The translations under genes and the position numbers were made by a program. Source: Methanobacteriaceae archaeon (lineage in GTDB: Archaea > Methanobacteriota > Methanobacteria > Methanobacteriales > Methanobacteriaceae). From it: a stretch of 34,373 nucleotides of DNA. This document shows, piece by piece, positions 9,096 to 34,373 of this stretch; positions within the stretch are counted from its first letter, which is position 1, and each line of letters begins with the position of its first letter. The stretch spans positions 1-34,373 of the forward strand of contig JAUXXK010000347.1 in the NCBI GenBank assembly GCA_030681145.1, given 5' to 3'. Under the pieces are notes generated by a model that ran no database searches, was not told the DNA's origin, and saw only the letters and a program-made list of their open reading frames with translations.

Positions 9096-9238
9096 TCGCC
9101 TTAATTTATTTATATTCAACGATTAATCTATAATCAATTCTGAAGATGGAGAATCATTATTTCCATTTATTTCCACTTTAAGGAACAAATTAATGGATTT
9201 AATTGATCTCCCAATGATTATAATCCGGAGAATTTAAA

Positions 9239-9676
9239 ATGATCAGAACTAAACGGAAAATAAACAAAATGAGAGGTTCCCGAACCATAGGCGGGGGTTG
9301 TTCCAAGAAAAGGAGAGGAGCAGGCCATCGTGGTGGAAGAGGGATGGCTGGAGGCCACAAACACAAATGGTCTTGGATTGTCAATAATGATCCAGATCAT
9401 TTCGGTAAATACGGTTTCAAAAGGCCCCAAAAATCAATTAAAAAGGTTAACCCTGTTAATTTAAGTTACTTAGATGAAAATTTAGAACAATTGCTGGAAA
9501 AAGGTTTGGCCACCACAGAAAATGATGTTATTGTAATTGATATCACTGACCTTGGATTCAATAAAGTATTAGGTCGTGGCAAAATAACAAAACCTCTTTT
9601 AATAAAAGCTCCTGAGTTTTCTGGATTGGCTGAAAAGAAAATCCAGAAAGCTGGTGGCGAATCAGTAACTCTCTAA
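9239..9676 (+). CDS. rpl15p: 50S ribosomal protein uL15
   Basis: 145 aa. Gly/Arg-rich N-terminus (GAGHRGGRGMAGGHKHKW) is typical of L15. Precedes secY. Confidence 0.94.
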   Translation: MIRTKRKINKMRGSRTIGGGCSKKRRGAGHRGGRGMAGGHKHKWSWIVNNDPDHFGKYGFKRPQKSIKKVNPVNLSYLDENLEQLLEKGLATTENDVIVIDITDLGFNKVLGRGKITKPLLIKAPEFSGLAEKKIQKAGGESVTL

Positions 9677-9719
9677 TTTATTTTATCTTTCATATTCAAT
9701 TGTATAAGGAGTGAAATAA

Positions 9720-11063
9720 TTGATAGAGAAACTTCAGCCTATTTTTTCTATTTTACCCCAGGTAAAAAATCCTGAGCACAGAATTGCATTTAAAGAAAAA
9801 TTGAAATGGACAGGAATTATATTGATCCTGTACTTTTTACTTACCCAAGTACCATTATATGGTCTTAGTCCCTTAGCTGTGGATCAATTTTCTCAGCTAC
9901 GTGCTGTTTTAGCTGGCAGCTTTGGTTCAATTCTTACTTTGGGAATAGGACCAATTGTATCCGCATCCATTGTGCTTCAGCTTTTGGTTGGCGGTAAAAT
10001 TCTTAAATTAGATTTATCACGACATGAAGATAAGGCTTTGTTTCAAGGAGCTCAAAAACTCCTAGCTATCATTTTTACACTCTTTGAAGCTATTGTGATG
10101 GTACTTACGGGAGCTATAGCTGCTGAATCTTCACAATTCATTTGGATACTTATATTTCAAATGACTATCGGAGGAATTTTAATAATTTTCCTTGATGAGG
10201 TCGTTTCTAAATGGGGATTTGGAAGTGGAGTAGGACTGTTTATTGCAGCGGGCGTATCTCAGGAAATTATAGTGGGTTCATTTAATATATTATCATCTCC
10301 TACTCAACCAGGTGTACCTGCTGGTAAAATTCCAGCGTTTATATATTCATTAACTACAGGATCACCATCTTTTGATTACTTAATTCCTGTTATAGCAGTA
10401 ATTGCAGTATTTTTGGTGGTAGTATATGCTGAGAGTATGAGGATAGAAATTCCTTTATCTTCTGGTAGGGTGAAGGGAGCTCGAGGAAAGTATCCATTAA
10501 GATTTATATATGCTAGTAATATGCCAGTAATTCTGGCCAGTGCATTGTTATTGAATGTTCAGTTATTTGCCAATCTTTTCCAAAAAATTGGTTATCCTAT
10601 TTTAGGAACTATTGTCAATGGGCAAGCGGTTAGTGGATTGGCGTATTTATTAACTCCTCCTCGTAGTTTAGATGTTTTATTTACAGATCCACTACATGTA
10701 ATTGTATATGGTGTAGTATTCATAGCAATGTGTATTGTCTTCGCGATTTTGTGGGTAGAATTAAGTAACATTGGGCCAAAAGCTGTGGCAAAACAGCTAC
10801 ATGATATGGGTATGCAAATTCCTGGATTTAGAAGTAGTCGAAGACAGTTTGAAAAGATAATGAAGAAGTATATTCCTGCTATGACTGTTTTAGGTGGTGC
10901 TTTTGTAGGTCTTCTTGCATTCGGGGCAGATCTTACAGGTGCTCTTGGTGGTGGTACTGGTGTTCTACTAACTGTAGGAATTGTATACCGACTTTATGAA
11001 GAAATTGCACAGGAACAGTTGATGGATATGCATCCAATGCTAAGAAAATTCCTGGGAGATTAA
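9720..11063 (+). CDS. secY: Preprotein translocase subunit SecY
   Basis: 447 aa, about 10 hydrophobic segments, conserved SecY motifs (GIGPIVSASIVLQLL, YASNMPVILA). TTG start after an AAGGAGTGA SD. Confidence 0.95.
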   Translation: MIEKLQPIFSILPQVKNPEHRIAFKEKLKWTGIILILYFLLTQVPLYGLSPLAVDQFSQLRAVLAGSFGSILTLGIGPIVSASIVLQLLVGGKILKLDLSRHEDKALFQGAQKLLAIIFTLFEAIVMVLTGAIAAESSQFIWILIFQMTIGGILIIFLDEVVSKWGFGSGVGLFIAAGVSQEIIVGSFNILSSPTQPGVPAGKIPAFIYSLTTGSPSFDYLIPVIAVIAVFLVVVYAESMRIEIPLSSGRVKGARGKYPLRFIYASNMPVILASALLLNVQLFANLFQKIGYPILGTIVNGQAVSGLAYLLTPPRSLDVLFTDPLHVIVYGVVFIAMCIVFAILWVELSNIGPKAVAKQLHDMGMQIPGFRSSRRQFEKIMKKYIPAMTVLGGAFVGLLAFGADLTGALGGGTGVLLTVGIVYRLYEEIAQEQLMDMHPMLRKFLGD

Positions 11064-11101
11064 ATTTATCTTAATTTTGAGTGAACAAGGAGTATGGTAA
11101 G

Positions 11102-11659
11102 ATGAAAGTAGCTGTTATGGCGGGAATTCCCGGATCCGGAAGTACTACGGTTTTAAACCAAGCATTAAAAGACCTTGATTACATTAATGTAAACTATGGT
11201 GATGTAATGCTCCAGATTGCTCAGGAAAAAGGATTAGTTGAAGATAGAGATGCTCTAAGGAGGTTATCTCCATCTGCGCAAAAAGAAATTCAAAAAGGAG
11301 CAGCAAAAAGTATAAGAGAAAGGTCGAAGCAAAATAACATAATCGTTGATACCCACTGCACTATTAAAACACCTGCTGGTTTTTTACCGGGGCTTCCTAA
11401 ATGGGTTTTGGAAGAACTTCAACCTGATATTTTCTTGTTAATAGAAGCTGATGCAGATGAAATTTTACTTCGGAGAATCAGTGATACTTCACGCACTAGG
11501 GATTTAGAAATGATGAAGGAAATAAATCTTCATCAAGAAATGAATCGAGCTGCTTCTATGGCATATGCCGTGCTTACTGGCGCCACTGTACAGATTATTG
11601 AAAATCACGATAATCAGCTTGAAAATTCTGTAGTGGAAATGGTGGAAACACTAAAATAA
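11102..11659 (+). CDS. adkA: Adenylate kinase, archaeal type
   Basis: P-loop GIPGSGSTT at the N-terminus. Archaeal AdkA family layout and position after secY. ATG at 11102 (MKVAVMAG) preferred over 11081. Confidence 0.88.
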   Translation: MKVAVMAGIPGSGSTTVLNQALKDLDYINVNYGDVMLQIAQEKGLVEDRDALRRLSPSAQKEIQKGAAKSIRERSKQNNIIVDTHCTIKTPAGFLPGLPKWVLEELQPDIFLLIEADADEILLRRISDTSRTRDLEMMKEINLHQEMNRAASMAYAVLTGATVQIIENHDNQLENSVVEMVETLK

Positions 11660-11806
11660 AATAAAAATAGTTAGAAATTTAATTAAATTTATATATTTAT
11701 TTATATAATCTAATAAAAATATAAACTAATTTATAATAATCTATTATGAATTTGATATTCAGATAAAAAAATATCTAACTATGATTTTAAAGAAGAGGAA
11801 ATAAAA

Positions 11807-12373
11807 ATGTTTGATTTAATCTATGGGGTTTTGAATGCAATATTTGGACCTGTAATTGCACTTGATCCCAATCCCAATAATCCCATATTCACAATTTTCC
11901 TGATTTCTACATTAGTGGCATTCTTCATTACTCTAGCCAATAAGTTACTGGTAGATCAGGACAAAATGGAATCTATAAAAAAGGAAATGCAAGAATTCCA
12001 GCAAGAAATGAGGGAAGCTCAAAAGTCTGGTGACCCTAAAGTTATGGAAAAAATGCAAAAAAAACAAATGGAGTTTATGGGCAAACAGAAAGACATGATG
12101 ACCATGTCATTTAAACCCATGATTGTAACCATGTTACCCATTCTTATTGTATTCTGGTGGATGGCCCAGGAACCACACATAGCAAATACGGTAGTAATGC
12201 TTCCACAAGTAACATATTATGTGCTTTTAGTACCTATATGGCACATGTTTTACCAGCCTCTCGCTAGTACACCTGTTGGTGCTATTGAATGGTTAGGATG
12301 GTATGTATTATGTTCATTTGCTATGTCTCAGTTATTCAGAAAATTAATGGGACTTAAAAGTGGTGGAATGTAA
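11807..12373 (+). CDS. DUF106-family membrane protein (archaeal YidC/Oxa1/EMC3-like insertase candidate)
   Basis: 188 aa. TM1, then a long Lys/Glu/Met-rich coiled coil (KMESIKKEMQEFQQEMREAQKSGDP...), then two TMs. This topology and the secY-adk neighbourhood match the MJ0480/DUF106 family. Confidence 0.75.
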   Translation: MFDLIYGVLNAIFGPVIALDPNPNNPIFTIFLISTLVAFFITLANKLLVDQDKMESIKKEMQEFQQEMREAQKSGDPKVMEKMQKKQMEFMGKQKDMMTMSFKPMIVTMLPILIVFWWMAQEPHIANTVVMLPQVTYYVLLVPIWHMFYQPLASTPVGAIEWLGWYVLCSFAMSQLFRKLMGLKSGGM

Positions 12374-12545
12374 GTACTAACATTAATTTAATTCGAATAA
12401 GTTTCATAAATAAATACACTAATTTATATTATAAACTATTCAAATAAATTATATCTAAATAAAGTAAGATATTATCATATCTAATTTTTAGAGTATATTG
12501 TTAGTAACGAAATTTTTATATTAATTAATAATTAGGAGAGATAAA

Positions 12546-12812
12546 ATGCCAGCATTAAGATATAGATCCAGATCATACAAGAGGACTTTTAAAAGGACTC
12601 CTGGTGGAAAAACGGTCTTAAGATATAAAAAGAAAAAACCAAGTAAGCACATATGTGCAGAATGTGGTAAATTACTCCATGGTGTTCCTCGTGGAAGGCC
12701 ATATGAAATTAATAAATTAGCAAAAACTAAAAAACGACCTAACAGACCTTACGGTGGACATTTATGTACTGAATGCACCCGTAAATTATTTAAACAAGAG
12801 GCAAGGTCTTAA
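12546..12812 (+). CDS. rpl34e: 50S ribosomal protein eL34
   Basis: 88 aa. [16 protein letters not shown]...C.ECGK.L.GV is the L34e signature with 4 Cys. Confidence 0.93.
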
Positions 12813-13330
12813 TGATTATTACCATCGGTGGATTAGCAGGTAGTGGAACAACCACTACGGCTAAAATATTGTCTCAAAATTTAAACATTCCTTTCGTATC
12901 TGTAGGTGACATATTCCGGCAGATGGCGAATGAAAAAGGAATGGATATATTAGAATTCAGTAAACTCGCCGAAAATAATATAGATATTGACACTGAAATT
13001 GATCGTAGACAGTCTGAAATGGCTAAAAAGTCAAAAAATCTTATTGTGGAAGGAAGACTTTCTGCATATTTTGTGGATGCTGATATAAAAGTATGGATGA
13101 TTGCCCCATTAGATGTTCGTGCTGAACGGATTTCTCAGAGGGAATCTAAACTATTAGAAACAGCAAGAAAAGAAATCAAAATACGTGAAGATAGTGAATC
13201 GCTCCGATACAAGGAGATTCATGACATTGACATCAATAGCCTAGACATTTATGACATAATCTTGAATACGAATAGTTTTCAAGCTAATAGCGTCGCCGAA
13301 ATAATAGAAAAAGTTACAAAGGTGATTTAA
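12812..13330 (+). CDS. cmk: Cytidylate kinase, archaeal type
   Basis: 172 aa. P-loop [14 protein letters not shown]. Start overlaps the L34e stop (TAATG). Conserved L34e-cmk-L14e arrangement. Confidence 0.88.
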
Positions 13331-13557
13331 TGCCAGCAATAGAAGTAGGAAGAGTATGTGTTAAAACCGCAGGTAGAGAAGCGGGAGAAAAGTGTGTTGT
13401 AGTAGATATTATTGATGAAAAGTTCATAGAAGTTGTAGGATCATCTGTAAAAAACCGCAGATGCAACATTCAACATCTGGAACCTTTAGATCAAAAAATC
13501 GAAATAAAATCAGAAGATCCTGAAGAGATCAAAAAAGAGTTAGAAGCTCTAGAATAA
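13330..13557 (+). CDS. rpl14e: 50S ribosomal protein eL14
   Basis: 75 aa. KOW-like [24 protein letters not shown]. Start overlaps the cmk stop. Confidence 0.9.
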
Positions 13558-13560
13558 TGA

Positions 13561-13568
13561 TCTTTTTT
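13561..13568 (+). terminator. Oligo-T tract (candidate archaeal terminator) after eL14
   Basis: TCTTTTTT lies 4 nt after the stop and is followed by a 200-nt spacer. Confidence 0.4.
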
Positions 13569-13757
13569 GGCGTTGTATGTGTTTAGCTTATTAGTATTTT
13601 ATTCAAATTAAAGATGTTATGAAATGATTATTGGTTCATAACTAAGATTAGGTGGCAAACTATATTCCACATTATCTGAATTTTTAATTCAAAAAATCTA
13701 AAAACATTATTCATGGATTTTATCAACGCTTAAATCAACGCCTAGCAGGTTATTTAG

Positions 13758-14720
13758 ATGGAAAATTTAATTATTAAAGCCGAAAGTGAAACCAATCCGG
13801 AGTATGGTTCCTGTCCGGATTCACGCCCAATTAAAGAACACCTTAGCAAGGGAATTATTAATCTGGACAAAACGTCTGGCCCTACTTCTCATGAAATTGA
13901 TTCATGGGTACGCATAATTCTTGACGCTCAAAAGACGGGGCATGGTGGAACTTTAGACCCTAAGGTCACAGGCATATTGCCCATAGGAATTGATAAGGCT
14001 ACTAGGGTAATGCAATTACTACTGGCAGCTGAAAAAGAATATATCTGTCTGATGAGACTTCACCGTGAGATTGATGAGCCTCAAATTCGTGATATATTCT
14101 CTGAATTCCAGGGTAAAATTTTCCAGACCCCTCCCCTGAAATCTGCAGTAAAGCGAGAACTAAGGGTTAGAAATATTTACTATGCTAACATTCTTGAAAT
14201 TGAGGGGCAAGATGTTCTTTTCAGAATTGGATGTGAAGCTGGTACTTATATTCGAAAATACTGCCATGACATTGGTGAAGCTCTGGGTATTGGTGCACAC
14301 ATGGCTGAACTGCGAAGAACAAAGGTTGGCTCTTTTAAAGAGGATGAAACAGTCACTACTTTACACGATCTTACTGATGCTTACTACTACTTGAAAGAAG
14401 ATAGTGACGAATCTTTAATTAGAAAATGTGTGCTTCCAATGGAAAAAGCAGCATCCCATCTTCCCAAAGTAGTTGTCAGGGATTCTGCCGTTGATGCAAT
14501 TTGTCATGGTGCAAAATTAGCTTCTGGCGGTATCTTGAGATTAGATGAAAACATTAAAAAAGGAACAACAGTGGCTGTTGAAACTCTCAAAGGAGAACTC
14601 ATTGCGGCAGGCGAAAGTCTGGAAACAGCTGAAGAAATTGTAGAATCAGAAAACGGTATTATGGTGGATATAAAAAAGGTATTTATGGAACCTTCAACAT
14701 ATCCTAAATTGTGGAAATAA
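13758..14720 (+). CDS. truB: H/ACA RNP pseudouridine synthase Cbf5 (TruB family)
   Basis: 320 aa. Catalytic motif GHGGTLDPKVTGILPIG and a C-terminal PUA-like region (VVVRDSAVDAICHGAKL). Confidence 0.93.
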   Translation: MENLIIKAESETNPEYGSCPDSRPIKEHLSKGIINLDKTSGPTSHEIDSWVRIILDAQKTGHGGTLDPKVTGILPIGIDKATRVMQLLLAAEKEYICLMRLHREIDEPQIRDIFSEFQGKIFQTPPLKSAVKRELRVRNIYYANILEIEGQDVLFRIGCEAGTYIRKYCHDIGEALGIGAHMAELRRTKVGSFKEDETVTTLHDLTDAYYYLKEDSDESLIRKCVLPMEKAASHLPKVVVRDSAVDAICHGAKLASGGILRLDENIKKGTTVAVETLKGELIAAGESLETAEEIVESENGIMVDIKKVFMEPSTYPKLWK

Positions 14721-14868
14721 AGTAAATGATATATTTTTTTAATTTCAAACTATTTTTATTAAAATAGATGAATAATTTATATCAATTTTATAAATAATTT
14801 TCTGAAAATTAAATAAACTCTTTAAATACCAAAAACTATAAACCATAAAAAAATGAAATAGTTTTTTA

Positions 14869-14898
14869 CTATTTATAAGATAGCTATTTATAAAATAG
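14869..14898 (+). promoter_or_regulatory. Tandem TATA-box-like elements upstream of tRNA-Ser
   Basis: CTATTTATAA occurs twice (14869-14878 and 14884-14893). A third TTTATAAG is at 14920-14927. No TSS can be assigned from sequence alone. Confidence 0.3.
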
Positions 14899-14942
14899 TT
14901 TAATATTGCATTGCTGAAGTTTATAAGACCATATTATCTATG

Positions 14943-15029
<87 letters not shown>

Positions 15030-15191
15030 ATTGGTATATATGTAAGTTCTAAAGAATATTTTTTAGTTCTTACCCCTATGACAATATTTGCACATTAAAA
15101 AAAGAAATATGAAAAAACAGACATTAGTTAATGTCTTGAATTCGCACATTTCCCGTCTGTGGATTCGCTCTGTATTTGGAGGTTACATAAA

Positions 15192-15647
15192 ATGGATGAA
15201 GATTTTAAGCACTTAGTTCGTATTGCCAGAAAGGATGTAAATGGTAATAAAGCTATTATAAATGCTTTAACAGATATTAAAGGTGTTGGAAACGGATTAT
15301 CCAAAGCAATAATCATTGCTATGGGTTTTGACCTTGAGCAAAAAATGGGTTACCTTTCTGATGAAGATGTTTTAAAAATTGAGGAAGCATTAAAAGATCC
15401 TCAAAAATACGATATCCCCGAATGGATGTTAAACCGTCGTAACGATTACGAAACTGGTGAAACTAAACATTTAATTGAATCTGATCTTGTAATGTGTCTT
15501 CGAGATGATCTAAATAGAATGAAGAAAACTCGAAGTTACAAAGGACGAAGACATGAAGTTGGTTTACCTGTCAGAGGTCAAAGGACCAAATCTACCTTCA
15601 GAAAAGGTTCTTCTGTTGGCGTAAGAAGAAGGAGAGGAAGACAATAG
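15192..15647 (+). CDS. rps13p: 30S ribosomal protein uS13
   Basis: [18 protein letters not shown]...GVG...RGQRTKS is the S13 signature. ATG at 15192 sits 8 nt after GGAGG. The track start at 15159 adds an unlikely 11-aa leader. Confidence 0.92.
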
Positions 15648-15699
15648 GTCATAAGATCATTGTCATTGTCAGATAAAACAATTATAAGGAGATATGGTT

Positions 15700-16233
15700 A
15701 TGGGACACCCAAGAAAAGCAAGGAAAAAGTACGATACTCCTCCACACCCATGGAATGCAGATAGGATTAAGGAAGAAAATAAACTTACATCCAAGTACGG
15801 CCTAAAAAATAAGAAAGAAATTTGGAAAGCCGAAACCATGGTGCGAAGATACAGAAGAGATGCTAGATATTTACTAGGTCTTTCCACTGAACATACAGAA
15901 GGGGAAAGAAAAGAATTATTAGGGCATCTGATAAGATTTGGAATTTTAGGAGAAAAAGCTCATCTGGAAAATGTTTTAGATCTTACCGTTGAAGACGTTT
16001 TAAGAAGAAGATTACAAACTATGGTTCACCAGAAAGGTCTTTCCCGAACTGCTAAAGAAGCAAGAATCTTTGTTGTGCACGGACACATTGCCTTAAATGG
16101 TAAAAAAATTGATTCACCAAGTTACATTGTAAAAAGAGGAGAGGAAGATAGTATAGGATACTATGCTTCATCCCCAGTGGCCAAACAATTCCAAACTAAG
16201 CAAGAAACTAAACCTGCTGAGGAAAAAAATTAA
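15700..16233 (+). CDS. rps4p: 30S ribosomal protein uS4
   Basis: [18 protein letters not shown] is the archaeal S4 N-terminus, followed by an S4 RNA-binding domain. The second ATG is better spaced from the AAGGAG SD. ATG at 15694 is also possible. Confidence 0.92.
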
Positions 16234-16248
16234 TTAAGAGGCGTTATA

Positions 16249-16641
16249 ATGGCTGAAAAAGAAAAATGGGGTATTGCTAATATTTACTCATCATTTAACA
16301 ATACAATAATAACCATTACTGATATCACAGGAGCAGAAACCATTACCCAATGGTCTGGTGGTAAAGTTGTACGGGCCGACAGACAGGAGTCATCTCCTTT
16401 TGCGGCAATGGAAGCTGCCTCCAGAGCTGCCGATGATACTAAAGAAAAGGGAATCGTAGGATTACATATAAAAGTACGTGCTCCCGGTGGAAACGGACCT
16501 AGAACTCCTGGGCCTGGTGCTCAAGCTACAATTAGGGCTTTAGCCAGAGCAGGTATTCGAATTGGTAAAATTGAAGATGTTACTCCTATACCTCACGATG
16601 GTACCGGAAGGCCTGGAGGTAAGAGAGGAAGAAGGGTCTAA
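16249..16641 (+). CDS. rps11p: 30S ribosomal protein uS11
   Basis: 130 aa. [18 protein letters not shown]...[15 protein letters not shown] is the S11 signature. Confidence 0.95.
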
Positions 16642-16642
16642 T

Positions 16643-17434
16643 ATGGAGATTCATGTCCAAAAGAAGAATGAGATTGAACTTGTTTTTACGATCAGCGGTG
16701 CGGATATGTCTTTTGTCAATGCCATTCGTAGAGTGTGTATGATGGAAGTTCCTAAAATGGCAATTGACGACGTGCACATAATTAAAAATGACTCCGCCAT
16801 GTTCGATGAGGTTCTTGCCCATAGATTAGGATTATTACCACTGGTATCTGATTCTGAATCTATTGATGGTATGATATTACCTGAAGAATGTGACTGTGAG
16901 GAATACTGCCCAAAATGTAGTGTTTCTATGGTTCTAAAAAAAGAAGGACCTGGAGTTGTTTATTCCAAAGACTTATCTTCAGAAGACTCAAGGATAAAAC
17001 CAGTTTATGATACTATACCTCTTCTAAAACTCAAAGACGATCAAGAAGTTGAATTAGAGGCAACAGCCCAGTTAGGAATAGGAATGGAACATGCTAAATG
17101 GGAACCTACTACCGCATGTGCCTATAAATTCTATCCACAAATAACTATTGGTGAAGATTGCCAGTCCTGTCAAAAATGTGCTGAAGCATGTCCAAGAGGA
17201 GTTCTTGAATTCGATAAAAAATCTGAAAAGATTAAAGTAGTCGATGAATTGAACTGTTCTATGTGTAAGAGCTGCTTTAGAGTATGTGAATCTCGCACAA
17301 TTGATATAGGATTTGATGATACTAAATTCATTTTTACGATCGAAACTGACGGTTCAACACCTCCGGAAGAGGTTTTAATCAAAGCTTGTGATGTATTATC
17401 AGAAAAAGCGGACAAGATTATTGACATTTTGTGA
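16643..17434 (+). CDS. rpoD: DNA-directed RNA polymerase subunit D (Rpo3) with a ferredoxin-like double 4Fe-4S domain
   Basis: MEIHVQKKNEIELVFTISGADMSFVNAIRR is the RpoD/RPB3 N-terminus. ATG lies 1 nt after the S11 stop. Contains CQSCQKCAEACP and CSMCKSCFRVC motifs. The track start at 16562 overlaps S11 and is rejected. Confidence 0.92.
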   Translation: MEIHVQKKNEIELVFTISGADMSFVNAIRRVCMMEVPKMAIDDVHIIKNDSAMFDEVLAHRLGLLPLVSDSESIDGMILPEECDCEEYCPKCSVSMVLKKEGPGVVYSKDLSSEDSRIKPVYDTIPLLKLKDDQEVELEATAQLGIGMEHAKWEPTTACAYKFYPQITIGEDCQSCQKCAEACPRGVLEFDKKSEKIKVVDELNCSMCKSCFRVCESRTIDIGFDDTKFIFTIETDGSTPPEEVLIKACDVLSEKADKIIDIL

Positions 17435-30611: not shown

Positions 30612-31847
30612 ATGCCAGTAAAAATAAATGAAAACTATTTATTGCTCAAAAGCAGTTACATATTTGCTCAAATTAATCAGAAAGTTAATGATTTCCAGGA
30701 AAAAAATCCTGATGCAGAGATTATTAGAATGGGAATTGGTGATGTGACTCGCCCACTTCCAAAAGCTGTAATTGAAGAATTTCACAAAGCAGTGGATGAA
30801 ATGGGATCATCAAAAACGTTCATGGGTTATGGTCCTGAACAAGGATACTCTTTTTTAATAAAAGATATCATAAAAAATGATTTCATACCACGGGGAATAC
30901 AAATTTCCGAAGATGAAGTTTTTATCAGTGATGGAGCAAAATGTGACACAGGAAATATACAAGAAATATTTGGTTTGGAAAATTTAGTGGCAGTGACTGA
31001 CCCAGTTTACCCAGTTTATGTCGAAACAAATGTTATGGCGGGTAGAACAGGATCAATGGGTGAAGATGGAAGGTACGAAAAATTAGCTTACCTTCCTTGT
31101 ACTGCAGAAAATGATTTTGTGCCACAACTACCTGAAGAACCAGTTGATTTAATATATTTATGTTTTCCTAACAACCCTACTGGAACTACCTTAAACAAAG
31201 ATCAGTTGGCTAAATGGGTAAATTATGCTCGAGAAAACAAATCTATAATTCTTTTTGATGCCGCTTATGAATCTTATATTCGGGAAGATGATATTCCTCA
31301 CAGTATATATGAAATAGAAGGCGCAAAAGAGGTGGCCATTGAATTTCATAGTTTCTCTAAAAATGCAGGCTTTACAGGTACTCGATGTGCCTACACTGTT
31401 GTACCAAAAGAACTAATAGCATATGATTCTGAGGGGAATCCTCAACCCATTAATCCTCTATGGAACCGAAGACAAACCACTAAATTTAATGGTGTTTCTT
31501 ATCCTATTCAAAAAGCTGCAGCTGCAGTTTATACTCCAGAAGGACAAAAAGAGATTGGAGAATCTATTGATTACTACATGCAAAATGCCGGTATTATTCG
31601 AGAAAGTTTGATAGAAATGGGATTGAAAGTTTATGGTGGTGTAAACTCCCCTTATATATGGATTAAAACTCCTGAAGGTATTAGTTCATGGGGCTTCTTT
31701 GATCTATTATTAAAAGAGGCTAATGTTGTGGGAACTCCGGGTGTAGGTTTTGGTCCTAGTGGAGAAGGCTACTTCAGAATTACTGCATTCAATACCTTAA
31801 AAAATACAAAAGAAGCAATGGAAAGAATATCTAAACTTTCCATTTAA
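30612..31847 (+). CDS. dapL: LL-diaminopimelate aminotransferase (DapL)
   Basis: 411 aa. N-terminal [21 protein letters not shown]-lysine context [13 protein letters not shown] and NPTG are the DapL-type class I aminotransferase pattern. From memory, it holds the same position as the DapL gene in Methanothermobacter. Confidence 0.85.
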
Positions 31848-31893
31848 TTAATTTTTATTAGTTTTAATTTAAAATAATATGATATTATTACCT

Positions 31894-32304
31894 TTAACTC
31901 ATTTTACTTTTGTTTGAGGGCTTAACATAAGAACCATCTTTATCATGTACTTCACTACCTACCAGTGGTGGGTTGAAAACACATAATAATTTTAAATCAT
32001 TTTCATAAGCACGAAGATAATGTCTGTCATTTTTATCAAGAGCATACATGATACCATTTTTAATGGGATAAATATTCCCATCATCAGTAGTTTCTATTTC
32101 TCCTTCACCTTCAATACAATATACGGCTTCTAAGTGGTTTTTATACCAAATTAAAGTTTCAGTGTTGGCATAAATTATGGTTTCATGAAAAGAAAATCCC
32201 ATGTTGTCTTCTTCTAGAAGGAAACGTTTACTAACCCAATTATTATTTTTAGCAAAAATTTCACGATCAGACCCTTCAATATCCTTAATATTTCTAACTA
32301 TCAT
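31894..32304 (-). CDS. ectC: L-ectoine synthase (cupin)
   Basis: 136 aa. MIVRNIKDIEGSDREI...WVSKRFLL..DNMGFSFHETIIYA.TET.IWYKNHLEAVYCIEGEGEIE is near-consensus EctC. Confidence 0.93.
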   Translation of the reverse strand: MIVRNIKDIEGSDREIFAKNNNWVSKRFLLEEDNMGFSFHETIIYANTETLIWYKNHLEAVYCIEGEGEIETTDDGNIYPIKNGIMYALDKNDRHYLRAYENDLKLLCVFNPPLVGSEVHDKDGSYVKPSNKSKMS

Positions 32305-33577
32305 TATTTAAATCCCCAATCATAGCTTCACGGGTTTCAAGAACAGATTTTATGGAATCTTCTATTATTTGTAACCCCTCTTGAAGGAGATCATTTTCTA
32401 TGGTTAATGGAGGTAAAAATTTAAGTACATTATCGTTTGCACCAGCTAATTCTATTAAAAGGCCTCTTGAAAATGCTTCTTCAGATACATCACTACAAAA
32501 ACCTCTTAAAGGAATCTTAAGACCATATATAAGTCCTTTACCATACACTTCAGCATATATGTCGGGGTATTTATCTTGAATTTCCAGTAATTTTTCTTTT
32601 AATATTTCTTCTTTATTATAAACACTATTGGAGAGATTATCATTTTCCCAGTAGCTTAAAAGTTCAGTAGATGCAACAAAAGCCAGATTATTTCCTCTAA
32701 AGGTACCAGTATGCTCCCCTGGTTTCCATTGGTCTAATTCGGATTTCATAAGCACTATGGCTAAAGGTAAACCACCTCCTATTGATTTAGAAAGTGTGAT
32801 AATATCTGGATTGATTCCAGAGCTCTCGAAACTAAAAAAAGTTCCGGTCCGGCCGTTTCCTACTTGAATGTCATCTATTATTAGTAATATATCGAAATCT
32901 TTGCATATTTGTTCGATTTCTCTTAGCCATTCATCGCTAGCTACTTTAATACCGCCTTCAGCTTGAACGGTTTCTAAAATTATTGCTGCGGGTAAGTCTA
33001 CGCCACTGCTTTGATCCTCAAGGAATTTCCTGAGATATGGGGCAGTGTTAGTATCCGGACCGAAGTATCCATCAAAAGGCATGAAGCTGACATTACTTCT
33101 ATTAATAAATGCTTCATCTCTGTAAAATGAATTAGCAGTAACTGCCATAGACCCCATGGTCAGCCCATGAAATGCATTGGTAAATGCAATAACATTTGAT
33201 CTACCTTTAACCATTCTTACTAATTTTAAAGCTGTTTCAACTGCATTGGTTCCGGTAGGACCTGAAAATTGCATTTTATATTCCATATGTCGTGGTTGTA
33301 ATATAATATCATGAAATTTTTCGAGAAATTGTTTTTTGGCGGTTGTAGCTTTATCTAGACCGTGAATAATTCCATCATCACTTATATATTTTATAAGGGC
33401 TTCTGAAACCATGGGATTGTTGTGGCCATAGTTCAGTGTCCCGGCACCAGCAAAAAAATCAATATACTCTTTTCCTTGTTCATCCCATAATTTAGAACCC
33501 TTAGCTGTTTTAAATATAGCTGGGAAACTTCTAACATAACTTCGTACTTGTGATTCAAGTTGTTTAAATGTTTTCAT
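32294..33577 (-). CDS. ectB: Diaminobutyrate-2-oxoglutarate transaminase
   Basis: 427 aa. LESQVRSYVRSFPAIF...YIDFFAGAGTLNYGHNNP and class III aminotransferase PLP region (TLSKSIGGGLP). Overlaps the ectC start by 11 nt. Confidence 0.92.
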   Translation of the reverse strand: MKTFKQLESQVRSYVRSFPAIFKTAKGSKLWDEQGKEYIDFFAGAGTLNYGHNNPMVSEALIKYISDDGIIHGLDKATTAKKQFLEKFHDIILQPRHMEYKMQFSGPTGTNAVETALKLVRMVKGRSNVIAFTNAFHGLTMGSMAVTANSFYRDEAFINRSNVSFMPFDGYFGPDTNTAPYLRKFLEDQSSGVDLPAAIILETVQAEGGIKVASDEWLREIEQICKDFDILLIIDDIQVGNGRTGTFFSFESSGINPDIITLSKSIGGGLPLAIVLMKSELDQWKPGEHTGTFRGNNLAFVASTELLSYWENDNLSNSVYNKEEILKEKLLEIQDKYPDIYAEVYGKGLIYGLKIPLRGFCSDVSEEAFSRGLLIELAGANDNVLKFLPPLTIENDLLQEGLQIIEDSIKSVLETREAMIGDLNNDS

Positions 33578-33625
33578 ATAATCACTCTATATCCAAAATG
33601 GAATTTTCATGACTTAAAAAATATT

Positions 33626-34120
33626 TTATTTCTCCAATTTGTTTAAAGGCCCTATTCGAAAAAGCAATTCTTCTTCGTGATTTGATTCACCGAATAGATC
33701 ACTGGTAAAAAATGGAAACTTTTCTAAATTTGTATCCAATTGAGAAGCAATTTTTTTAAATAGTGATTTGGATGCTTGATTAGAGGGGGTAACTGTTGTT
33801 TCAATGAAATTAATTGGTTGAATATCTTCTCTTTTAAGAATATCATTTATCATTTTAGTTGCCAGTCCCTTCCCGCGCATATTGGGACTCACTGCTACTT
33901 GCCATACAAAAAGAGTTTCCTTTTGTTTTGGATTAATGTAAGCAGATATATATCCTACAATTTCATTGTTTAATTCAGTTAAAACACTGGTTTGATCAAA
34001 ATGTGCACATATGATCAAATAACTATATAATGAATTAATATCCAGTGGCTGACATTTTTGAACAAGATGATAAATCAAATTTCCATCTTCAATCTGAGGT
34101 TTTCGAATATTTATTACCAT
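33626..34120 (-). CDS. ectA: L-2,4-diaminobutyrate acetyltransferase (GNAT)
   Basis: 164 aa. IRKPQIEDG..IY.LV..C.PLD.NS.Y.YLI.C.HF..TS, LFVWQVAVSP.MRGKGLA, ETTVTPSNQAS..LF and LFRIGP match the EctA family. Confidence 0.9.
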   Translation of the reverse strand: MVINIRKPQIEDGNLIYHLVQKCQPLDINSLYSYLIICAHFDQTSVLTELNNEIVGYISAYINPKQKETLFVWQVAVSPNMRGKGLATKMINDILKREDIQPINFIETTVTPSNQASKSLFKKIASQLDTNLEKFPFFTSDLFGESNHEEELLFRIGPLNKLEK

Positions 34121-34373
34121 ATTTTCATCATTTTAGTCTTATATACTAATTTATTTTTTAATCCTTTAAAAAGTATTCGCTTAAAATAAACTTTATTCGT
34201 GCTCTAAAATAGATTTAAGTCTTAAATTATCTATTTATATTTGGTTCCTGTTTTTAATTTATATTATTAATAATTTCTAATCATGTATTCACATTTTTTT
34301 AATTGCTGTTTGTTTTTTATTTTAAAAATTTTATAAAAAATAAAAAAAAATTATTTGAAATTTTTGAAATCAA

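Follow-up and report, generated by a model that had tools for sequence, protein, structure and literature searches.

The locus considered here, a set of ectoine-biosynthesis genes at the very end of an archaeal contig, raises the question of whether a methanogen possesses an ectoine pathway of its own or whether bacterial DNA has been joined to, or has recently entered, its genome. The stretch concerned, hereafter the window, comprises 34,373 nucleotides (nt) from a Methanobacteriaceae archaeon (NCBI GenBank assembly GCA_030681145.1, contig JAUXXK010000347.1), in which an earlier reading made from the letters alone (the sequence-only reading) had reported a complete ectABC operon at positions 31894–34120. 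Our analysis indicates that the window very probably holds an ectABC operon that is intact and looks native to its Methanobacteriaceae chromosome, encoding an ectoine pathway that was acquired from bacteria long ago and has since descended largely vertically.

Gene identities were assigned by the curated whole-protein cut-offs of NCBIfam, and all three products score above them. Specifically, ectA (33626–34120, minus strand) encodes a 164-residue L-2,4-diaminobutyrate N-gamma-acetyltransferase of the GNAT fold, which scores 205.7 bits against the TIGR02406 equivalog (cut-off, 120.6) and also matches PF00583; ectB (32294–33577, minus strand) encodes a 427-residue, class III, pyridoxal-phosphate (PLP)-dependent L-2,4-diaminobutyrate:2-oxoglutarate transaminase, which scores 642.1 bits against the TIGR02407 equivalog (cut-off, 552.2) and 655 bits against NF006733; and ectC (31894–32304, minus strand) encodes a 136-residue cupin, ectoine synthase, which scores 193 bits against NF009806 (cut-off, 128) and 193.5 bits against PF06339 (cut-off, 27). 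Each protein also matches solved structures of its own family: EctA matches 3d3s (E 4.6e-39) and 6sk1 (E 3.5e-31), EctB matches 9s1q (E 2.5e-139) and 6rl5 (E 4.4e-132), and EctC matches 5onm (E 3.6e-43) and 5bxx (E 4.1e-36). EctB residue K264 is positioned in an S-K-S motif aligned with 9s1q, and we take it, from general knowledge of class III aminotransferases, to be the lysine that forms the Schiff base with PLP. EctC residues E59, Y87, and H95 are invariant in eight aligned sequences (the window and seven relatives), share their alignment columns with the same residues of P. lautus EctC, and correspond, by position and by the flanking motifs HxEAVY, MYALD, and RHYL, to Glu57, Tyr85, and His93 of S. 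alaskensis EctC, which are described as metal-binding residues (PMC5924519). The Glu/Tyr/His metal-binding triad, the mark that distinguishes true synthases from solitary EctC-like cupins, is therefore present in the window EctC. The gene identities are confirmed, far beyond chance.

The genes follow one another on a single strand, ectA and ectB being separated by 48 bp and ectB and ectC overlapping by 11 nt (32294–32304), and the order A-B-C holds in every one of the 81 loci in which the full set was found. Upstream of ectB and ectC are purine-rich motifs of Shine-Dalgarno type (GAGTGAT and GGGGAT, respectively). No ectD, ask_ect, or ectR gene is present in the window or in the Pfam-annotated flanks of L081, L084, and L085, and none occurs in the 8 kb preceding ectA in L081, a near-identical relative. 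On every sequence-level test of membership in the ectABC cluster family the three genes came out as members, and by that measure they constitute an intact three-gene operon. The sequence-only reading had called three minus-strand open reading frames with Ect motifs, a compact operon with an 11-nt overlap, and a window without ectD, ask_ect, and ectR, and all of these calls are upheld. The overlap was also considered as a marker of the donor lineage and was rejected as such: it follows from the ATG-ATA-GTT-AG codons at the start of ectC, overlaps of the 11-nt type recur in unrelated branches (Syntrophales L008, L013, L020, L040, and L058, and Methanoliparum L031), and the ectB/ectC spacing in close Methanobacteriaceae relatives is −20, −23, or positive.

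The remainder of the window is, judged by its gene families, of Methanobacteriaceae type and unmistakably archaeal. In particular, it encodes SecY (NF006341), enolase, uS2_euk_arch, a MEMO1-family protein, and RNase J, together with mevalonate kinase, IPPK_Arch, IDI-2, IdsA_Meth, and gltX_arch (archaeal GluRS), confirming the earlier statement that a complete ectABC lies beside archaeal informational and lipid genes in a Methanobacteriales-type genome. The gene that adjoins the operon, dapL (30612–31847, plus strand; LL-diaminopimelate aminotransferase; TIGR03542, 633.5 bits against a cut-off of 364.7), is a host gene outside the operon that converges on ectC and marks a conserved chromosomal position. 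Its product is 76–90% identical to DapL proteins of Methanobacterium and Methanobacteriaceae; among named relatives it is closest to the proteins of HGW-Methanobacteriales-1 (89%) and Methanobacterium alcaliphilum (86%), and identity to M. alkalithermotolerans and M. movens is 82%. The host represents a lineage at the species level, with HGW-Methanobacteriales-1 and M. alcaliphilum nearest to it in DapL.

Two observations speak for a bacterial ect fragment having been joined onto the end of an archaeal contig during assembly or binning: only 253 bp separate ectA from the point at which the contig ends, and the taxonomic labels of metagenome-assembled genomes (MAGs) in the EctC family do not always agree (L003 carries the label 'Methanomicrobiales', and one cluster mixes the labels 'Methanoregulaceae' and 'Deltaproteobacteria'). 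However, the same ectC/dapL junction is spanned by four contigs from four samples (ENA ERZ27315057 and ERZ27315058, and Logan SRR22388168 and SRR11844784; relatives L081, L082, L083, and L084), the EctC proteins of which are 92–97% identical to that of the window. L081 and L084 extend beyond dapL to gltX and to the isoprenoid genes known from the window, with flanking host proteins 95–99% identical, and run on upstream of ectA into archaeal-type genes; L001, L002, and L085 also tie ectABC to the gltX-dapL neighbourhood; and composition is uniform across the ectC/dapL junction. Because independent assemblies show the same junction, the contig is not chimeric, and the chimeric or bacterial mis-assembly that had been named as a possible refutation is ruled out by the four contigs. 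We assign an artefact of assembly or binning practically no probability.

The ect genes resemble the genes of their host in composition. Codon-usage scores, calculated by a leave-one-out procedure on 39 host open reading frames (mean, 0.183 ± 0.055), are 0.201 for ectA, 0.194 for ectB, and 0.239 for ectC (z = 0.3, 0.2, and 1.0, respectively), and GC content at third codon positions (GC3) is 0.20–0.23, compared with a host mean of 0.265 ± 0.046. The host-like AT richness and codon usage that had been judged by eye thus hold quantitatively, with GC3 within the host range. A change in the sign of the GC skew at 32–34 kb was considered as a trace of foreign DNA and was rejected, as it coincides with the switch in coding strand.

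The ratios of nonsynonymous to synonymous substitution rates (dN/dS) against close relatives are 0.07–0.12 for ectA and 0.05–0.10 for ectB, compared with 0.04–0.13 for dapL and 0.14–0.16 for gltX; purifying selection on ectA and ectB is as strong as on these host genes. The ectC ratio against L081 and L082 is 0.72. Relaxed selection was considered and rejected as its cause: all but two of the differences are located in the tail after Y126, and the higher ratio arises because this C-terminal tail is hypervariable. EctC residues 127–136 (window positions 31894–31926) are hypervariable in both length and sequence, as are the tails of P0002, P0005, P0007, and P0008, and the tail varies even where the core is ~98% identical, inflating pairwise ectC dN/dS. 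With host-like composition, purifying selection, and conserved catalytic residues, the operon looks native.

The genes are also far from isolated among archaea. A non-exhaustive pattern scan with one genome per GTDB species yielded 314 relatives, of which the best 80 loci were analysed; at least nine of these are labelled Methanobacterium or Methanobacteriaceae. Further carriers identified by protein search are M. ferruginis, M. petrolearium, Methanobacterium sp. ACI-7, BRmetb2, and HGW-Methanobacteriales-1, along with numerous metagenomic clusters, and one EctC cluster member was found on 143 contigs. The window EctC sequence is itself in NCBI nr and falls in the same 90% cluster as MDZ4171012.1, annotated 'ectoine synthase [Methanobacteriaceae archaeon]'. 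The best EctC matches are other Methanobacteriaceae (76–97% identity), and the closest bacterial Ect proteins among the matches listed belong to MAGs of Syntrophales/Syntrophaceae, Leptospirales, and Spirochaetia, at 63–73% identity for EctC and 68–78% for EctB.

A neighbour-joining tree of concatenated EctABC (691 columns, 100 bootstraps, M. formicicum left out) places 13 Methanobacteriaceae operons in one clade with a bootstrap of 96, and a tree of EctA and EctB alone gives the Methanobacteriaceae clade the same bootstrap of 96. Anaerobic bacteria (Syntrophales, Leptospirales, and Spirochaetia) surround this clade in the tree. Where flanks are shared, Ect identity to the window falls in step with that of the flanking host genes: in L085 the identities are 72–86% for Ect proteins and 71–89% for host genes; in L001 and L002 they are 57–83% and 65–83%, respectively; and L085 is the closer for both. 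Because the Methanobacteriaceae operons form one clade and Ect identities track host-gene identities, we favour an old acquisition, with descent that was mainly vertical thereafter. The operon would be bacterial in ultimate origin, would have entered Methanobacteriaceae long ago from an anaerobic bacterium, and would since have been inherited mostly vertically, with local rearrangement, relocation, and occasional loss. A single old acquisition, from which the Methanobacteriaceae operons appear to derive, is the simplest reading of the sequences.

The idea of an old, ameliorated transfer, voiced in the sequence-only reading, is accordingly supported by the host-like composition and by the tree. 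Its surprise is not sustained: placement of the Ect proteins inside a broad, vertically inherited archaeal clade had been named as grounds for withdrawing it, and such a clade is largely what the tree shows (bootstrap 96). The rarity that it ascribed to archaeal ectoine genes is outdated, with ectABC carried by many Methanobacteriaceae genomes and MAGs and documented in the literature since 2014.

The same data bear on a recent horizontal acquisition, by which the operon would be a fresh bacterial island, with a syntrophic partner (Syntrophales, for instance) as its donor. In favour of this explanation, the closest non-archaeal EctABC proteins are those of the Syntrophales/Syntrophaceae, Leptospirales, and Spirochaetia MAGs, and the operon occupies a variable region downstream of dapL, from which it is absent in L087 and in M. 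alcaliphilum (L086). Yet ect codon usage and GC3 are indistinguishable from those of host genes, the best matches are Methanobacteriaceae rather than bacteria, the Methanobacteriaceae operons are monophyletic, and Ect divergence parallels host-gene divergence. Integrase, transposase, and repeat signatures are likewise lacking in the annotated flanks of the relatives examined, including M. ferruginis, ACI-7, and L091. Recent acquisition is already largely refuted, and we consider it very improbable.

A very recent inter-domain transfer was also considered, on account of a 90% EctC cluster, P0049, that mixes 'Methanoregulaceae archaeon' and 'Deltaproteobacteria' labels, and was rejected: the context of its representative contig is bacterial (FtsH and ask_ect), and the 'Methanoregulaceae' label is most likely a binning artefact. 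L003, labelled 'Methanomicrobiales', groups inside the Methanobacteriaceae Ect clade. The inconsistent labels of the P0049 cluster and of L003 are probably binning or label errors rather than signs of recent transfer between domains. A second archaeal ectABC clade, comprising L030 and L031 (Ca. Methanoliparum thermophilum and a 'Halobacteria' MAG, UBA8915), stands apart from the Methanobacteriaceae with a bootstrap of 100 and appears, from the tree, to represent a further independent archaeal acquisition; its hosts are not among the archaeal carriers named in the part of the 2018 census used here (PMC5924519).

Gene order around the operon is conserved among the nearest relatives and rearranged beyond them. 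In the lineage of the window the order is DUF2193-DUF2180-MIP-ectABC, then convergent dapL; in L001 and L002 it is ectABC-DUF2193-DUF2180-MIP, then dapL; and in L085 (HGW-1 type) it is ectABC, a small open reading frame, TRAM, DUF2193-DUF2180-MIP, and a histidine kinase, then dapL. The gltX-dapL order is kept in L001, L002, L085, L086, and L087. In the comparison of dapL-ect synteny that the sequence-only reading had proposed, the ectC/dapL junction is shared by L081–L084, the arrangement differs in L001, L002, and L085, and ect genes are absent next to dapL in L087 and L086. M. alcaliphilum (L086) has neither ect genes nor the DUF2193-DUF2180-MIP block beside dapL, and in M. ferruginis, ACI-7, and L091 ectABC is located at unrelated chromosomal sites among housekeeping genes.

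Several observations weigh against an old acquisition with mostly vertical descent. The operon site differs between Methanobacterium lineages, with three arrangements even beside dapL, and intra-family transfer is inseparable from rearrangement because of these differing sites; transfer between Methanobacteriaceae may thus have contributed. A close relative, L087 (DapL 90% identical), has no ect genes within 8 kb of dapL, which suggests loss, or relocation within that genome. As for the trees, all are neighbour-joining trees, support for Methanobacteriaceae monophyly from single genes is weak (bootstraps of 54 for EctA, 51 for EctB, and 5 for EctC, the EctC-only tree of 123 columns being poorly resolved), the backbone around the bacterial sister group is weak (bootstraps of 7–48), and the M. 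formicicum operons lie outside the sampled clade comparison. The L087 locus (ENA ERZ25039459 contig_63450, 9237–17236) retains the gltX-dapL and DUF2193-DUF2180-MIP neighbourhood, with an MIP protein 86% identical.

What the operon would do follows from the biochemistry of its families (PMC5924519; PMC5796728). EctB would convert L-aspartate-beta-semialdehyde to L-2,4-diaminobutyrate, using glutamate and PLP; EctA would acetylate L-2,4-diaminobutyrate with acetyl-CoA to N-gamma-acetyl-diaminobutyrate; and EctC, as a metal-dependent cupin, would close the ring of N-gamma-acetyl-diaminobutyrate to give ectoine. The host already produces the aspartate semialdehyde precursor for its DapL lysine route, the dapL gene of which adjoins the operon. 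As EctD requires O2 (PMC5924519), the absence of ectD is expected in a strict anaerobe. The product likely acts as a compatible solute when cells meet salt or osmotic stress; transcription as a single unit, induction by salt, and accumulation of ectoine are predicted from the sequence.

The enzymes could instead be active mainly for a non-osmotic purpose, for example to protect the cell from desiccation, ammonia, temperature, or alkaline pH, or to accumulate N-gamma-acetyl-diaminobutyrate itself. Alkaliphiles (M. alcaliphilum, M. alkalithermotolerans, and M. movens) are among the nearest named relatives of the host, the operon has no gene for an osmosensing regulator beside it, and ectoines have documented non-osmotic protective roles (PMC5924519). 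Nevertheless, osmotic stress is described as the principal inducer wherever ect expression has been studied (PMC5924519), and ectoine was detected in Methanocrinis cells at 0.6 M Na+ (PMC10598746). Nothing in the sequence discriminates between osmotic and non-osmotic roles; on balance we consider a mainly non-osmotic purpose improbable, and favour a compatible solute.

The DUF2193-DUF2180-MIP block, the last gene of which encodes an aquaporin-family protein, is located 0.2–3 kb from ectABC, on either side, in three differently arranged lineages of the subclade. It was found at L081:5552-7937, L084:5395-7938, L001:10811-13159, L002:7987-10335, L085:11269-13810, and L087:9991-12498; in three of the junction-sharing relatives it precedes ectA in the same orientation, and in L081 SelD and SelU are also upstream of ectA. 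The other Methanobacterium ect loci examined are without the block. Its proximity to ectABC may reflect a small osmoadaptation neighbourhood or merely historical linkage. In M. ferruginis (AP027738.1, L089:7790-11624), ectABC is followed on the same strand by genes for a P-type cation ATPase and an amino-acid permease, which could be another neighbourhood for ion or osmolyte handling. A bolder proposal, in which ectoine is a major overlooked solute across much of Methanobacterium and no oddity of a few strains, with the operon preserved by selection ever since a single ancient transfer from an anaerobic, possibly syntrophic, donor and, in the subclade of the window, joined with the MIP block in a small osmoadaptation island downstream of dapL, is one that we advance tentatively and think rather doubtful.

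Candidate signals flank the operon on both sides. Upstream of ectA (34121–34373, to the contig end, minus strand), alignment with three independent relatives reveals an almost invariant block, TAGAGCAC-AATAAAGTTTATTTTAAGCGAATA. A TTTATTTT box in this nearly invariant block, ~63–70 nt 5′ of the ectA ATG, is present in all four relatives and is a candidate TATA box of an archaeal promoter for ectA; a TATATAA box closer to the ATG shows no such conservation. In the relatives, the stop codon of the MIP-channel gene aligns with the final bases of the window, which breaks off at that point. Downstream, an AT-rich 46-bp spacer (31848–31893), read directly, separates the convergent dapL and ectC genes and carries oligo-T tracts on both strands. 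Oligo-T signals are generally used for termination in archaea, and by analogy the spacer has a predicted termination role. Rfam and tRNA scans identified nothing in the ect region; the one RNA gene detected in the window is a tRNA-Ser(GGA) at 14943–15027 (plus strand; ARAGORN; Rfam RF00005, 58.8 bits), within the ribosomal-protein and informational block.

The finding is real but ordinary: the operon category was already known, and published reports of Methanobacterium ectABC date from 2014, 2016, and 2018. If expressed, the operon gives a hydrogenotrophic methanogen the means to make ectoine, an ability relevant to methanogenesis in the saline or alkaline subsurface and in saline or high-ammonia digesters. 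Among MAGs and isolates of Methanobacteriaceae, the operon is far commoner than the three M. formicicum strains of the 2018 census suggested. Cultured carriers make ectoine accumulation in Methanobacterium testable, and the window adds nothing special in that respect.

Among the systems with which the window can be compared, the ectABC of M. formicicum BRM9 (BRM9_2205-2207) was published in 2014 by Kelly et al. (PMC4335013), and Czech et al. 2018 count eleven archaeal ectABC clusters, including Nitrosopumilus, three M. formicicum strains, and five Methanosarcinales (PMC5924519). Archaeal ectABC has been attributed to lateral transfer, and ectD is described as lacking in anaerobes (PMC5924519, PMC5796728). 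M. formicicum, a hydrogenotrophic Methanobacterium and a strict anaerobe, resembles the window in having ectA, ectB, and ectC but no ectD. Its EctC is reported to group with that of bacteria that are strict anaerobes, Deltaproteobacteria among them (PMC5924519), a neighbourhood similar to that of the window in our tree. It differs in that its DapL is ~77% identical to that of the window and its dapL lies in another chromosomal context; its EctC is the more distant, since it is not among the best 120 protein matches or the best 80 loci. Nearer to the window are the uncultured Methanobacteriaceae L081, L082, and L084, with identical synteny and proteins 92–99% identical, and the operons of HGW-Methanobacteriales-1, M. 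ferruginis, M. petrolearium, and ACI-7, which fall in the same tree clade. L001 and L002 differ in having the operon on the other side of DUF2193-DUF2180-MIP, and L085 in having it beyond the TRAM gene.

Outside the Methanobacteriaceae, the Methanotrichaceae (Methanothrix and Methanocrinis) likewise exemplify methanogen ectABC without ectD. Methanothrix MAGs of saline reactors carry an ect cluster (PMC9128505), and Khomyakova et al. 2023, who also name ANME-1 and the Methanobacterium species M. alkalithermotolerans as ect carriers, detected ectoine in Methanocrinis strain Mx by high-performance liquid chromatography (PMC10598746), the only direct chemical evidence of ectoine made by a methanogen. 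The remark in the sequence-only reading that methanogens offer little functional evidence is partly overtaken by this measurement and still holds for Methanobacteriaceae specifically. The ect genes of Methanotrichaceae represent a separate acquisition, with EctC grouping with Gammaproteobacteria-type sequences (PMC5924519, PMC10598746), in an aceticlastic Methanosarcinales host. The ectABCD of Nitrosopumilus maritimus is also an archaeal cluster of bacterial origin and is salt-induced, with a biochemically characterised EctC (Widderich et al. 2016, as described in PMC5924519); unlike the window, it belongs to an aerobic host of another phylum, includes ectD, and has an EctC that clusters with a planctomycete protein (PMC5924519). 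The closest bacterial counterparts are the ectABC-ask_ect operons of Syntrophales type (L092, L004), with EctB at most 78% and EctC at most 73% identical, the same gene order, and frequent ectB/ectC overlap; they have FtsH and a dedicated aspartokinase (AA_kinase and ACT domains, seen in L092) 3′ of ectC, whereas the archaeal operons are without the aspartokinase.

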